The notes under the pieces: model-generated
Told to the model about the DNA's origin: nothing
The model's input: only the letters and a program-made list of their open reading frames with translations
Database searches by the model: none
Shown here: positions 30,296 through 33,665 of the stretch, one piece after another
How the letters are laid out: each line of letters starts with the position of its first letter
Numbering within the stretch: position 1 is the stretch's first letter
Position numbers and translations under genes: made by a program
Assembly (NCBI GenBank): GCA_052386995.1
Contig: JBQTJP010000109.1
Coordinates: forward strand, 1-35,365
DNA: 35,365 nucleotides
Source: Armatimonadota bacterium
Lineage (GTDB): Bacteria; Sysuimicrobiota; Sysuimicrobiia; Sysuimicrobiales; Humicultoraceae
Direction of reading: 5' to 3'

Positions 30296-30829
30296 CTACT
30301 TCAAGCACAGCAGAACTGCCGTCAGCGTCAGCCCATCGGTAATCGCCCGGTCCCTGACCATTTGCCAGATCTCTTCCTTTGAGAATGCACGGACCTCGAG
30401 CACCTCGCCCGTATCGAACGCGCCCGAGTTCTCGGTTGCCCGGCAGCGGACAATGTGGAAGACCTGGTTGGCCATCCCGTTGACGGGGTGATAGGAGTAG
30501 ACATGCTCGCCCTCAGTGGAGTGGTAGCCTGTCTCTTCCAAGACTTCTCGCTGTGCGGCTTCGGTGATCGACTCACCGTCCTCAACATATCCGGCGGGCA
30601 GCTCCCATGACGTGGCGTCCGTCGCGTACCGGCAGATACGGGCGAAAAGCACGCGGCGATCGGCGGTCTCCGCTACGGCCGCGACGGCGGAGCGGTGGAA
30701 ATCCAACAGATGGTGCTGTTCCACGATGCTGCCATCGGGAAACCGCACTCTGTCCACGTAGAGATTCACCCACGGGCTCTGGTAGATGACAGTCCTGGAC
30801 AGTCGTTCGGGCTTCGCGTATGTCTCCAC
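30296..30829 (-). CDS. Nudix hydrolase (ADP-ribose pyrophosphatase-like)
   Basis: Complete Nudix box GYVEDGESITEAAQREVLEETGY, WELPAG, ITDGLT; GGAGG RBS before GTG 30829. Confidence 0.88.
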   Translation of the reverse strand: METYAKPERLSRTVIYQSPWVNLYVDRVRFPDGSIVEQHHLLDFHRSAVAAVAETADRRVLFARICRYATDATSWELPAGYVEDGESITEAAQREVLEETGYHSTEGEHVYSYHPVNGMANQVFHIVRCRATENSGAFDTGEVLEVRAFSKEEIWQMVRDRAITDGLTLTAVLLCLK

Positions 30830-30881
30830 GTGAGCCTCCGGTCGGGAGTTATTGTTCGTGTTTCGACTCGGTCTGATGTTA

Positions 30882-30897
30882 TGAAAGCGCCGCGCCT
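30882..30897 (+). repeat. Left sub-terminal inverted repeat of the IS
   Basis: TGAAAGCGCCGCGCCT is the exact reverse complement of 32178-32193. Confidence 0.95.
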
Positions 30898-30959
30898 CCA
30901 GACCGCGAAGATCTTGTCGGTTACCAGAACGGCAAGATCCGCAGAGAGGAGGCGCAGCG

Positions 30960-32003
30960 ATGCAATACATAGCCTTCGATGTGCACAAGCGCTACACCTG
31001 GGCGCGGGTGGAGCGCGCGGACGGAACGGTCGTGCGGGAGAAGAAGATCGTCCACGAGAGTGGAGCGCTACGGCAGTTCTTGGCCGGCTGTGAGCCGGGC
31101 TCACCCGTGGCCGTGGAGACGGTCGGCAACTGGTACTGGATCGTGGACGAAGTGGAGGCAGCCGGGTGTTGTCCCCAACTGGTACATGCTCGCAAGGCGA
31201 AGCTAATGCTGGGGACGGTGAACAAGACGGACCGCCTGGACGCTCGAGGACTGGTGCGGTTACAGCGGACGGGGACGCTCCCGGTGGTCTGGATTCCACC
31301 TCGCGAGCTGCGGGATGCGCGCGAGCTGCCACGCACCCGGATGGTGCTGGTGGCGCAGCGCACGCGGCTCAAGAATCGGATCCACGCCACGCTGAACAAG
31401 TACGGCCTCCTGCTGCCTGACGTCTCGGACCTCTTTGGACAGCGCGGTCGTCACGAACTGCGTGCGTGCTTGACTGAGCTCCCGCCCCAGACGGCCTTCG
31501 TGGTCTCGCGACTGCTCGAGCAGGTCGACGGACTGGATCGGGACATCGAGGCGCTGGAACAGCGGATGGGCGAGCTCTTCGAGGTGGACGACGCGACCCG
31601 GTTGCTGCTGACGCTCCCAGGGGTAGGGTTCATCCTGTCGATTGTGCTCCGCACGGAGATCGGGGACGTCCGGCGCTTTGCCAGCAACGAGCACCTGGCG
31701 GCGTATGCGGGCACGGTGCCGCGGGTGCACGACTCGGGTGGGCGCCAGCACTATGGGCCCGTGCGGGCGGATGTCAACCGGTACCTGAAGTGGGCCTTTG
31801 TCGAAGCGGCCAACGGCGTCTGCCGGAATCGTCGTCGCAAGCACGCTCAGCGGCACATCAGCCGGGTGTACGAACGGGTCACCACGCGCAAGGGACACCA
31901 GAAGGCAATCGTGGCGGTGGCCCGGCACCTGGCGGAGGCCACCTACTGGATGCTGACCAAAGGAGAGTCGTATCGCGAACCCGCGGCGTCCAGGGGAGCG
32001 TAA
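30960..32003 (+). CDS. IS110 family transposase/recombinase (DEDD RuvC-like plus Tnp domain)
   Basis: AFDVHK (D), VAVET (E), KTDRLDA (D,D), [21 protein letters not shown] (conserved Ser), AVARHL; AGGAGG RBS; 347 aa, uninterrupted. Confidence 0.96.
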
Positions 32004-32125
32004 GCGCGTACTCGGTCCTGAGCCCATTGAGGCTCGTCGGTCTGATTGCGACACGCTCCCAGGACATCCTCATGCCCTTGCTAAGGGCGAAGAGATGGAT
32101 CCGGCGAATCGGGTTGAGGGACGTC
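31988..32125 (+). ncRNA. Predicted bridge/seek RNA of the IS1111-type element (boundaries approximate)
   Basis: Nested stems enclose ACTCGGTCC (32010-32018) and TCGGTCTGAT (32037-32046), matching the two target flanks, and AGAGATG (32091-32097), matching the element end plus core. Confidence 0.75.
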
Positions 32126-32172
32126 GAGGGACATAGGAGGGACACACAAAGGAGAAGGTCGGTCAACGGGGG

Positions 32173-32178
32173 TTGACA
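32173..32178 (+). promoter_or_regulatory. Outward-facing -35 hexamer at IS right end (junction promoter half)
   Basis: Perfect TTGACA exactly 17 nt before the GATG core. Confidence 0.65.
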
Positions 32179-32193
32179 GGCGCGGCGCTTTCA
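32178..32193 (+). repeat. Right sub-terminal inverted repeat of the IS
   Basis: AGGCGCGGCGCTTTCA is the exact reverse complement of 30882-30897. Confidence 0.95.
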
Positions 32194-32236
32194 GAGATGG
32201 ACCGAGTTGCCGGCCCTTCTCCCTCGGCGAACAGCC

Positions 32237-32650
32237 TTATGGGGTCGCACCGGACTGATGCTCATAGTTCCGAATGATCATAGCGCTGGCTGGCTGCATG
32301 CCGAATATAGAGTAGAACCGCTGCAGCTGTGGATCGCAGACGGTATCAACCATGTAAAGCTTCCCCAGACGGCGCAGTATTCTTCGCATGAGTTCGCTAC
32401 CGATCCCTCGTCGCCGGTAGGCTGGCAAGACCTCTAGAAACGGGACGTAAGCGCTCAGGATTCCATCTGTAACGGCCGTAACAAATCCTACGACGTCACC
32501 AGACACGTCGTCGATAGCGAGCACAAAGACATCGCCGCTCGCCAAGAGTCTCCGATGCATGGCAGGCGTCGGCGGGTTTGGCCAACCCTCAAAGAAACCC
32601 CGAAGTCTCCATGCGTCAGTGCCCTCGAGCGTCTCAACGTATCTGATCAT
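32237..32650 (-). CDS. GNAT family N-acetyltransferase
   Basis: VVGFV, LEVLPAYRRRGIGSELM acetyl-CoA motif, RFYSIFG; GGGAGG RBS. Confidence 0.9.
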   Translation of the reverse strand: MIRYVETLEGTDAWRLRGFFEGWPNPPTPAMHRRLLASGDVFVLAIDDVSGDVVGFVTAVTDGILSAYVPFLEVLPAYRRRGIGSELMRRILRRLGKLYMVDTVCDPQLQRFYSIFGMQPASAMIIRNYEHQSGATP

Positions 32651-32726: not shown

Positions 32727-32755
32727 CGAGTTCGAACTCGTTCCGGAACGAGTTC
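32727..32755. repeat. Two overlapping perfect palindromes
   Basis: CGAGTTCGAACTCG (32727-32740) and GAACTCGTTCCGGAACGAGTTC (32734-32755). Confidence 0.8.
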
Positions 32756-33665
32756 ACCTGGACCGTCCTATGTATTGACTGAAGCGGGGATCGAGATAAT
32801 CGCGCACCGCGTCCCCGAACATGCCCACCGCCAGGACCGTCAAAGTCATTACCGCCCCCGGCATCGTGGCGATCCACCAGGCGTTCTGCAGATACTCGCG
32901 CCCCTGGCTGATCGTCACGCCCCATGAGGGCAGCGGGTGGGGGATGCCCAGGCCCAGGAACGAGAGCGCGGCCTCCGCGAGCATTTGCAGCGCAATCTGG
33001 AGGGTGGCCAGGATGACGATCGGTGTGAGGATATTGCGCAGGATGTGGCGCGTCATCACGCGGCCGCCAGTGGCCCCGAGCGCCCTGGCGGCCTCGACGA
33101 ACTCTTTCTCGCGCAGCGAGAGCACGGACCCCCGGGTCAGCCTGGCAAACACCGCCCATCGGATGACCGACAGGGTGAGGATGACGTTGCCGATCGACGG
33201 GCCGATCATCGCGGCAATCAGGATCGCGAGCAGCAGCGGAGGAAAGGCGAGCTGCAGATCGACCAGACCCATGAGAATCGTATCCGTCAGTCCGCCGTAA
33301 TAGCCGGCAACGAGTCCCAGGGCGGTTCCGCTGACCCCCGCGATCACGACTGTGCTGGCGGCGACGAGGATCGACACGCGCGCGCCGTGGATGACCTGTT
33401 GCAGCAGGTCGCGCCCCAACTGGTCTGTGCCGAACCAGGCGACCTGTCCGTCCGGCAGCCTCGCTCCGGGCGGAAGGAGACGGTGCTCCAGCCGATGGGC
33501 GAGCGGGTCGTACGGAACGACGACCGGCCCGAGGAGGCCGACGCACACAGCCACGGTGAGCACGACCGCGGTGACGGCGACCCTGCGGCCTTTCCGCGTG
33601 GACGTCAGCGATCGCGCGGGGGGCGTCCGGAGGGCCGCCGCCGCGGCTGCGGCGTCGCCGGTCAT
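32754..33665 (-). CDS. ABC peptide/nickel transporter permease, DppC/OppC type
   Basis: FGTDQLGRD, KEFVEAARALGA, LSFLGLG, GDAVRDYLDPR. Confidence 0.93.
   Translation of the reverse strand: MTGDAAAAAAALRTPPARSLTSTRKGRRVAVTAVVLTVAVCVGLLGPVVVPYDPLAHRLEHRLLPPGARLPDGQVAWFGTDQLGRDLLQQVIHGARVSILVAASTVVIAGVSGTALGLVAGYYGGLTDTILMGLVDLQLAFPPLLLAILIAAMIGPSIGNVILTLSVIRWAVFARLTRGSVLSLREKEFVEAARALGATGGRVMTRHILRNILTPIVILATLQIALQMLAEAALSFLGLGIPHPLPSWGVTISQGREYLQNAWWIATMPGAVMTLTVLAVGMFGDAVRDYLDPRFSQYIGRSR

Follow-up and report, generated by a model that had tools for sequence, protein, structure and literature searches.

An IS1111-type insertion sequence at the centre of a dispersed palindrome in an Armatimonadota genome

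Abstract

In this study, we describe an insertion sequence (IS) and its target in a 35,365-nt contig of an Armatimonadota bacterium (GenBank assembly GCA_052386995.1, contig JBQTJP010000109.1, positions 1 to 35,365), which is called the window below. The segment 30876-32197 reads as an intact IS of the IS1111 type (IS110 family), a new member of an established kind, and it was probably inserted by RNA-guided DEDD recombination at the dyad centre of an 18-bp palindrome linked to HNH genes. This reading is carried by the anatomy of the element, its junctions, the repeat family of the target, the covariation of guides with flanks and the RNA helices, all of them observed here. In the proposed mechanism, the recombinase, directed by RNA, would have placed the IS exactly between the two halves of ACTCGGTC-TG-GACCGAGT, leaving a copy of the central dinucleotide (the core) at each junction. 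The guide RNA would originate from the 194-nt right end, with one internal loop bearing the two target guides and a second loop bearing AGAGA+UG, which matches the right end of the IS and the core. The target is one of the symmetric palindromes of 18-20 bp (AACTCGGTCCGGACCGAGTT), chiefly borders of ~1.35-kb units with a DUF222-like HNH gene, the other copies standing mostly just past stop codons. By homology with ISEc11, ISPa11 and IS621, the RNA is presumably made and guides insertion, and the core is probably exchanged in the process.

Structure of the insertion sequence

The element (30876..32197, plus strand, 1322 bp) begins with ATGTTA and ends with GAGA. These letters form terminal extensions of 6 nt on the left (30876-81) and 4 nt on the right (32194-97), placed outside two subterminal inverted repeats of 16 nt, the left one (TGAAAGCGCCGCGCCT, 30882..30897) being 100% complementary to its perfect partner on the right (32178..32193). 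Between them, on the same strand, an intact gene (tnp, 30960..32003) codes for a DEDD recombinase/transposase of 347 aa with both domains of the IS110 family, PF01548 (1.2e-14, 54.8 bits) and PF02371 (3.9e-20, 72.5 bits), each above its cut-off; against the NCBIfam model NF033542, 'IS110 family RNA-guided transposase', it scored 237 bits (cut-off 140). Residues D7, E53, D91, D94 and S259 align on identical residues of IS621 (structure 8wt6), and we take their equivalents to be the catalytic positions of that enzyme. The non-coding ends are unequal, 84 nt on the left and 194 nt on the right, the longer one lying downstream of tnp.

Perfect subterminal repeats of 16 bp are of the kind that marks the IS1111 group, for which lengths of 7-17 bp (PMC11208160), mostly 11-13 bp (PMC11187229), are reported. 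Because the domains, the subterminal repeats and the longer right end fit the criteria of PMC11187229 and PMC11208160, the element was assigned to the IS1111 group. The host genome (G000, in which the window is contig C109) is a metagenome-assembled genome (MAG) of 326 contigs, 93% complete. The search for further copies in it that the first-pass annotation of the window had proposed returned one full copy and a weak 40-nt match only, in an assembly where repeats may have been collapsed.

An outward-facing -35-like hexamer, TTGACA (32173..32178, plus strand), abuts the right inverted repeat, and its TTGAC is kept in the related copies L040, L056, L041, L042, L204 and L142. A junction promoter is a known feature of circles of the IS110 family; in a circle junction of the present element the hexamer would stand 17 nt before GATGAT, which would fit such a promoter. 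In the integrated state, a promoter scan called none at 32173-78. The left flank of another relative, L029 (TCAGAGATG before ATGATA), resembles a right end followed by a core, such as a tandem or a circle junction would produce.

Insertion site and core dinucleotide

As the first-pass annotation had noticed, the IS is flanked by two 8-bp arms, ACTCGGTC (30866..30873, plus strand) and GACCGAGT (32200..32207, plus strand, read directly), with TGATG at 30874-78 and GATG at 32196-99 on their inner sides; the extension of the arms by G30865/T32208 (a G-T pair) and C30864/G32209 is also present as it stated. The left arm is the same as in 11 uninterrupted 18-mers of the host genome. The further step of that annotation, an empty site of the form arm-TGATG-arm with duplication of GATG, is wrong by 3 nt, as uninterrupted sites have a 2-nt centre. 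With the spacing left free at 0-8 nt, the genome gave 11 matches, all with 2 nt (CG) between the arms and all identical to the perfect 18-mer ACTCGGTCCGGACCGAGT, against 0 in the control. The pattern with a 5-nt spacer, proposed for searching, had no match in the window at up to 2 mismatches, and in the genome it gave 2 sites at 2 mismatches versus 3 in the reversed control.

Related copies of the IS were collected by screening 88 loci, of which 42 had both inverted repeats and an anchor; the metagenome loci L204 and L142 come from a scan with the 16-nt inverted repeat as a query, and are among the matches listed. From the 80 metagenome loci among those matches, 77 are not ends of the window IS family by a signature test that covers left ends only, and one right end was, for the same reason, recognised by eye.

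Five related copies occupy the same palindrome family, so the flanks of other copies, on whose likeness the first-pass proposal depended, are not unrelated. In L040 (recombinase 79% identical, from a MAG labelled Armatimonadetes) the site reads ACTCGGTC-CG-[ATGTTA...GAGA]-CG-GACCGAGT; in L056 (74% identical) CTCGGCC-CG-[...]-CG-GGCCGAG; in L041 (73% identical) AACTCGCCG-TG-[...]-CG-CGGCGAGTT, with guides that carry CG; in L204 (a metagenome contig, IS 76% identical in DNA) CCTCGGTC-CG-[...]-CG-GACCGAGT; and in L142, where only the right junction is available, GAGA-CG-GACCGAGTT. The core is thus CG at 4/5 related occupied sites (the left side of L041 has TG), where the window has TG on both sides, at 30874..30875 and 32198..32199 (plus strand), and in relatives the two copies of the core covary with each other. 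L042 (73% identical) sits at an unrelated, non-palindromic site, with TG...TG in common with the window and nothing beyond. Throughout these related copies, ATG after the left core and GAGA before the right core are constant, and the layout YG + 6 nt + repeat ... repeat + 4 nt + YG was found in 33/39 anchored loci scored.

Since related copies keep ATG and GAGA while the core varies between CG and TG, only 2 nt are duplicated, and ATG and GAGA belong to the IS. From the junctions of these copies it follows that the IS is 30876-32197 and the original site was ACTCGGTC-TG-GACCGAGT. Read from sequence in this way, the apparent GATG repeat is made of the core G plus the left ATG of the IS at one junction, and of the right GA of the IS plus the core TG at the other.

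The empty allele between the Nudix and GNAT genes next to the IS is predicted to read ACTCGGTCTGGACCGAGT. An uninterrupted ACTCGGTC-TG-GACCGAGT was found in the congener G001 (G001:C834:7434-7451), preceded by a 33-nt flank with 91% identity to window 30843-75. G001, like G010, is an unpublished genome; this TG site with a homologous left flank, the comparison of an HNH unit with GNAT and the C74/C861 pair described below rest on it. As for the empty Nudix-GNAT allele itself, which the first-pass annotation suggested looking for, the GNAT-side flank has no DNA match in the 60 related genomes. In run X1, one contig agrees with the window as far as 32208, and its next 19 letters are the same as those flanking a palindrome on another host contig (G000:C302:111-128), which, on the other strand, reads CCTCGGTT-TG-GACCGAGT and is a TG-core site. 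This contig could reflect a further insertion of the IS, carried by only some members of the population, or a branch of the assembly graph.

Putative guide RNA and its match to the target

A putative guide RNA (seekRNA, or bridge RNA) region lies within the 194-nt right non-coding end (32005..32115, plus strand). Three helices, 32005-08/32047-50, 32019-23/32032-36 and 32074-77/32085-88, were placed on an alignment of 25 right ends of relatives, the pairs being counted on a hand-set structure. They are paired in 97.2% of cells versus 24-45% when the 3' partners are slid, and 6 pairs have compensatory changes; 0/500 shuffles scored as high. The first two helices close an internal loop, the 5' side of which carries ACTCGGTCC (32010..32018, plus strand), the candidate right-target guide with a 9/9 match here, and the 3' side TCGGTC-TG-AT (TCGGTCTGAT, 32037..32046, plus strand), the candidate left-target guide with TG at the core position. 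The latter is the top-strand sequence of the left arm and core, so it would pair with the bottom strand of both. As the first-pass annotation pointed out, TCGGTC is common to the two guides: both (32010-18 and 32037-44) read the same half-site. They are near-duplicates because insertion is at the exact dyad of a palindrome. The order of the guides is that reported for IS1111 seekRNAs, in which the complement of the top strand comes first and the matches overlap in the target (PMC11187229); here it is known from sequence and covariation. The window guides also fit, as far as sequence can tell, the logic of left and right target guides (LTG/RTG) in PMC11208160.

When the target differs, the guides differ with it. 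By eye, the right-target guide covaries with the flank in L041 and L042, and in the scored table in L045, L059 and L077; the guides are ACTCGCCGC and TCGCCGCG in L041, AGTGGGTC and AAATTG in L042, and L056 has CGGCCCG. The core position of the guide is CG in L040, L056, L041 and L204, and the sites of L040, L056 and L204 have CG on both sides. For scoring, 9/42 loci were dropped, L096, L101 and L102 for lack of an upstream anchor and L027, L037, L040, L051, L052 and L070 for a junction other than YG/YG. L040 has a 5-nt duplication (TGAAA) before the left inverted repeat, which shifts its left end; it was therefore left out of the scoring and read by eye. Among the 33 loci scored, 27 have distinct guide pairs. 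For these 27 elements, left guides match their cognate flanks at 6.85/9 positions versus 3.85 for the 702 non-cognate pairs, and right guides at 5.30/9 versus 3.57, the observed guide-flank total being reached in 0/5000 permutations.

The third helix (32074-77/32085-88) closes a second loop holding AGAGA-TG (32091-97), which becomes AGAGA-CG in relatives with a CG core. It is part of a candidate donor guide, AGAGA + core TG (+GA) (32091..32099, plus strand), recognised by eye as matching the right end GAGA of the IS and the core. On the 5' side of this loop, a candidate right-donor guide, likewise found by eye, ends in TCA (32070-72, plus strand); what precedes TCA changes along with the left-end sequence in L047, L049, L059, L061 and L069, again by eye.

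Palindrome repeats in the host and related genomes

The target is a member of a dispersed family of palindromic repeats, as the first-pass annotation had supposed from the single site: the host genome has 11 exact copies, and the family is present in 20/33 genomes of the same taxonomic family. Sites similar to the 18-mer number 11/15/21/31 in G000 at up to 0/1/2/3 mismatches versus 0/0/0/2 in the reversed control, and the half-site alone is at expectation (143 seen, 133 expected). The consensus extends to AACTCGGTCCGGACCGAGTT, the palindromes being symmetric and 18-20 bp long. Variants of the arms are symmetric as well: GTTC/GAAC, GTCC/GGAC, GGCC/GGCC (L056) and GCCG/CGGC (L041). The variant ACTCGTTCCGGAACGAGT has ~7 copies in G000, one of them in the window at 32736-53, and another variant, ACTCGTCCCGGGACGAGT, is at C11:17064. 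Our panel consists of 60 related genomes, 33 from the same taxonomic family (f1) and 27 from outside, the two unpublished ones being included in the palindrome and HNH counts; as these genomes are kin, presence and absence counts are not independent. With Y at the centre and up to 1 mismatch, the 18-mer is found in 20/33 genomes of the family and in 2/27 outside it, with a sole control match, in G001. Copies with a TG centre are a minority (e.g. in G001, G005, G010, G016 and G018). The supposition that the repeat is undescribed agrees with its absence, as a string, from the searchable literature, which leaves supplements and papers not under a Creative Commons (CC) licence outside the search.

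Ten sites in G000 have no HNH gene, and 6/10 of them start 0-34 nt past the stop of a stop-to-stop frame rich in G and C at third codon positions (GC3); these are frames, not verified genes. Such solo palindromes at frame ends, with no HNH gene nearby, are C39:11365, C67:14283, C160:10913, C203:283, C324:4558 and window 32736, and their position at stops could point to a role at the 3' end of mRNA or to a preferred landing place. An operator family, which the first-pass annotation had also considered, finds no support, since the copies mainly border HNH-gene units and the others mostly abut stop codons.

As single-stranded DNA, the palindrome folds into a hairpin whose 8-bp stem carries a loop of CCGG (-7.5 kcal/mol); an intrinsic terminator was rejected, as the flanks have no T-run and a terminator scan of the window called neither palindrome. 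Membership in the repetitive extragenic palindromes (REP/REPIN) was rejected on two grounds. The REP-associated tyrosine transposase (RAYT, the Y1 transposase of PF01797) has 0 matches in G000, at its 93% completeness, in a search to which control genomes responded, and there are 11 exact copies and 31 at up to 3 mismatches, not many tens to hundreds. The attC sites of integrons are imperfect, 57-141 nt long, with paired R and L boxes, and lie beside an integron integrase; a perfect palindrome of 18-20 bp is unlike them, and on this form of the site that membership was rejected too.

In G000, five pairs of palindromes are 1.30-1.44 kb apart, each round one HNH open reading frame (ORF) of ~350-400 aa: C74:4741-6117, C155:20536-21855, C79:1346-2649 (a broken copy), C220:7083-8467 and C294:2028-3471. 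When these five units and one from G001 were aligned with 80-nt flanks, similarity started at one palindrome and stopped at its partner. Ahead of the ORF, on the inner side of the upstream palindrome, the units have a conserved CTTGACA...TAGAT segment and a leader, and the 3' palindrome overlaps the ORF end. The HNH proteins are only 58-76% identical to the C74 copy, whereas the palindromes match at 18/18 positions at C74 and C155 and at 17/18 at C220. Both palindromes of the divergent C294 unit are of the GTTC type, its upstream copy (3454-71) with further mismatches. Within 600 bp of an HNH match found by tblastn lie 14/24 sites (up to 2 mismatches to either consensus). Pairs of palindromes ~1.3 kb apart round an HNH match recur in G007, G010, G018 and G025, and across the 60 relatives 18 have both palindrome and HNH gene, 4 the palindrome only, 4 the HNH gene only and 34 neither. 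The occupied palindrome of L041 is ~220 nt upstream of an HNH gene. A filled and empty pair is given by G000:C74:4686-6166 and G001:C861, where the flanks are 11 nt apart with no palindrome; the excess of 1481 bp in G000 consists of ~55 nt + palindrome + HNH + palindrome + ~49 nt. We read the palindrome family as the borders of selfish-looking HNH units together with solo copies at gene ends, and the palindrome would be functionally tied to the HNH protein.

In G018:C67 (7666, 8388, 9000) and G010:C87 (23775, 24547), palindromes are only 0.6-0.8 kb apart, with one inside the HNH protein match; these may be rearranged or nested units.

Gene neighbourhood and other branches of the IS family

On the minus strand of the window, the order is ABC permease, palindrome 32736-53, GNAT, IS-occupied palindrome and Nudix. 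The ABC permease ORF (32754-33665) has its stop at 32754, and the second, uninterrupted palindrome (32736..32753, the symmetric variant ACTCGTTCCGGAACGAGT) is 1 nt past it. The GNAT acetyltransferase gene (32237..32650, minus strand, PF00583 2.2e-11) is bracketed by the two palindromes. The Nudix hydrolase gene (30296..30829, minus strand, PF00293 1.2e-17) probably starts with the GTG at 30829, preceded by GGAGG (30835-39). The palindrome with the IS is 36 nt from that start, in the 5' leader of Nudix, with tnp on the opposite strand, and the IS probably cuts Nudix off from read-through from GNAT.

At G001:C834, the permease and Nudix genes recur, with an HNH unit between them in place of GNAT. 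The flank outside 32736-53 agrees with that outside the permease-side palindrome of G001, and the inner flank of the IS-target palindrome (30843-65) agrees with that on the inner side of this one G001 palindrome. To judge by this one case, the 528-bp GNAT segment seems to be bordered on both sides by copies of one site and to take the position that an HNH unit has in the congener.

Other branches of the IS family use other sites. In L046-L051, L059 and L144 (recombinases 66-69% identical, mostly from MAGs labelled Rokubacteria), left flanks are of the type GGTTCGAATCCCGT-TG and right flanks GAGCCACCA; this sub-branch appears to sit near the 3' end of a tRNA-like sequence (T-arm, acceptor strand + CCA), with guides that match. 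ARAGORN called 0 tRNA genes on six relatives with T-arm-like flanks, as expected if the gene is split. Copies L077, L078 and L083-L090, from MAGs labelled Acidobacteriota, stand always right after a hairpin CCC-N5-GGGG with a variable loop, then TG, ACGTGTC. Their left guide reads only GGGG-TG and the right guide GACACGT, and one of these MAGs has at least 5 copies.

Discussion

Two other ways of drawing the boundaries were weighed against an insertion at the dyad with a 2-nt core. The one of the first-pass annotation, an 8-bp stem with the 5-nt loop TGATG, GATG duplicated and ACTCGGTCTGATGGACCGAGT as the empty site, is extremely unlikely. GATG does stand at both junctions of the window copy, and the related L028 can also be written as 8 + 5 + 8, but the family has no member with a 5-nt spacing, the GAGA-CG right junctions of L040, L056, L204 and L142 restrict any repeat there to at most 2 nt, and ATG follows the left core at unrelated targets too, so that it is part of the IS. 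Boundaries in the style of ISfinder, without duplication, would give extensions of 7 nt on the left and 3 nt on the right (30875-32196) and a target centre of 4 nt (T + ATG). They agree with the 7 + 3 or 6 + 3 nt found correct for studied IS1111 members, and with the advice that one copy of recorded adjacent duplications should be counted to the IS (both PMC11187229). We nevertheless hold them to be very unlikely, as uninterrupted sites have a centre of 2 nt, not 4, and the dinucleotide 8 nt ahead of the left repeat varies in step with the one 4 nt behind the right repeat (CG/CG vs TG/TG), and both vary with the guides; counting one core copy to the IS would give 8 + 4 or 6 + 6, a matter of convention and not a different event.

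The nature of the target leaves more room for doubt. The palindrome could be an element of the host in itself, either a site bound by a protein or a REP-like hairpin at the 3' ends of mRNAs, with the HNH genes merely lying between copies or caught there and the IS using a harmless landing pad, as IS621, ISPa11 and ISPpu9/10 do on REPs. The 6/10 HNH-less sites at 0-34 nt past the stop of a GC3-rich frame, the overlap of the 3' palindrome with the ORF end in HNH units, the bracketing of GNAT by two palindromes and the stable stem with its CCGG loop speak for it. What makes it unlikely on balance is the low copy number (about 24-31), which tracks HNH genes within and between genomes, the exact conservation of the sequence across genera with symmetric variants common to both ends of one unit (C294), the lack of a T-run and of a terminator call, and the lack of RAYT in a 93%-complete genome. 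That the arms are chance complementarity or part of the IS, with no pre-existing target, has practically no probability left: the half-site is indeed not enriched, but 11 exact uninterrupted 18-mers stand against 0 in the control, the arms are missing at the junctions of L042 and about 30 other relatives, and the guides that match the arms change with the target.

Some results weigh against RNA-guided insertion at the dyad of an HNH-linked palindrome, and they are gathered here. The terminal extensions of 6 + 4 nt, with a 2-nt core on each side, sum to 10, like the 7 + 3 nt of curated IS1111 members (6 + 3 nt in some), and differ from them in the split, which depends on the convention for the core and may reflect clade or convention. 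A single copy was assembled in G000, so that the element can be called only putatively active. Right-target scores are weak (2-3 of 9) at many loci, because shorter guides fall out of place under the fixed offsets, the CA (TCA) of the right-donor candidate is unchanged even in relatives with a CG core, and Rfam gave no matching model over 30700-32400 at E up to 1. The uninterrupted site in G001:C834 shares the left flank only, its right flank being different, and is not a strict orthologue. In three public runs, that is, the assembled contigs of one study in which the source sample is probably included, the empty allele was not found and no contig skips the IS, which is evidence in neither direction.

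As regards the HNH link, the window site itself has no HNH gene, 4/5 related occupied sites have none within the 0.1-1.5 kb of flank available, and 10/24 sites have no HNH match on their contig, 2 of them less than 300 nt from a contig end. The DNA by which C74 and C861 differ is ~100 bp larger than the palindrome-to-palindrome unit, and the empty site has no palindrome. The Pfam match of the unit protein to HNH (PF01844) is marginal (21.6 vs a cut-off of 21.4 bits), its DUF222 (PF02720) score of 16.1 is below the cut-off of 24.4, and it has no NCBIfam match. For these reasons the protein is labelled DUF222-like HNH, a label given on sequence grounds, and is not filed as a member of REP13E12.

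With insertion at the dyad, the question of orientation takes a particular form. Within the 18-mer of the window site, symmetry is broken only by T:A vs C:G in the first position of the core; just beyond the arms, G30865 and T32208 do not complement each other and lie outside what the right guide reads. The idea of the first-pass annotation that only the asymmetric core can set the orientation is thus sound in its logic for the TG copy, as far as the sequence goes. At the CG sites of L040, L056 and L204, the paired target is fully symmetric. A broader and rather doubtful idea is that the 18-bp palindrome serves for recognition or recombination in an uncharacterised class of mobile palindrome-HNH-palindrome units, represented here in Armatimonadota-labelled genomes, that the same sites could also bracket other genes (GNAT), and that this IS1111-type clade has specialised as a parasite of such units, with both target guides on one half-site; the TG core would in that case have been reprogrammed naturally to a CpG-to-TpG variant of the site, and direction would be restored by it. 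If this were true, the RNA could not specify orientation on a fully symmetric CG site.

RNA-guided recombinases of the IS110/IS1111 kind are under development for genome writing, and what sets their direction is under active study. In the present clade, nature supplies examples of a paired target that forms a perfect palindrome, with the exchanged dinucleotide on its dyad; where the core is CG, nothing in the pairing of RNA with DNA can define orientation. Relatives with CG and TG cores, each with a matching left-target guide and candidate left-donor guide, provide a ready-made comparison of core reprogramming. As the target marks the borders of multicopy HNH-nuclease units, it also gives a handle on those units and on how they spread, and landing of an IS at these borders suggests conserved, tolerated sites. 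What is new here is modest: the target family and its tie to HNH genes, insertion at the exact dyad with the resulting duplication of a half-site in the guides, and CG/TG core variants with matching guides. That IS110/IS1111 elements insert into REPs, attC sites and other palindromes, and that they have guide RNAs, is already established (PMC11187229; PMC11208160), ISPpu9 and ISPpu10 being further cases.

Comparison with known systems

Among IS1111 elements with a seekRNA, ISPa11 targets REPs of P. aeruginosa, ISKpn4 and ISPst6 target attC, and ISEc11 likewise has a 3' seekRNA (Siddiquee et al. 2024, PMC11187229). The window IS resembles them in its DEDD recombinase of ~340 aa, its subterminal repeats and the long non-coding region downstream of tnp, as well as in the two short segments for the two strands, with the complement of the top strand first and the matches overlapping, and in a repeat target that can potentially fold. 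It differs from ISPa11, ISEc11, ISKpn4 and ISPst6 in a recombinase that is probably only distantly related and in 6 + 4 nt around a 2-nt core; unlike those described, it is at the exact dyad of a perfect 18-bp palindrome with both guides on one half-site, and its target is tied to HNH genes rather than being a classical REP or attC.

IS621, with REPs as natural targets and a sigma-70-type -35 box in the natural context of joined right and left ends (RE-LE) (Durrant et al. 2024, PMC11208160; structures 8wt6-9), is similar in its two-loop guide RNA and in the identical residues at the aligned D, E, D, D and S positions. It belongs to the IS110 group, unlike the window IS, with the RNA in the left end, subterminal repeats of 2-3 bp and the core CT, and its sequence match to the window recombinase is weak (E 9.5e-8, C-terminal domain). 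Confinement of an IS110-family element to one repeated intergenic palindrome is shared with ISPpu10 and ISPpu9 (PMC12288879). For ISPpu10 of Pseudomonas putida, a stem-loop of the target is reported to add specificity beyond base pairing (10.64898/2026.03.19.712850); there the stem-loop flanks the paired target, while in the window the arms of the palindrome would themselves be the paired target, as deduced from sequence.

Like the REP/REPIN-RAYT systems, the palindrome family is dispersed, short and present on both sides of a nuclease-type gene. Unlike them, it has no PF01797 in the host genome, the flanked gene is multicopy, palindromes number in the tens rather than the hundreds, and their length is just 18-20 bp with perfect symmetry. 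REP13E12 comprises multicopy units of ~1.3-1.4 kb with one HNH-type ORF each, which look selfish. The present units depart from it in a DUF222 score below the Pfam cut-off and in the bounding 18-bp palindromes, which are undescribed for REP13E12 in the searchable literature. Under the names REP13E12 or '13E12 repeat', the DUF222-HNH genes of Mycobacterium tuberculosis are mentioned in PMC10589994. In being multicopy, ~1.35 kb long and built round one HNH-type ORF, the present HNH units are of the same general plan.

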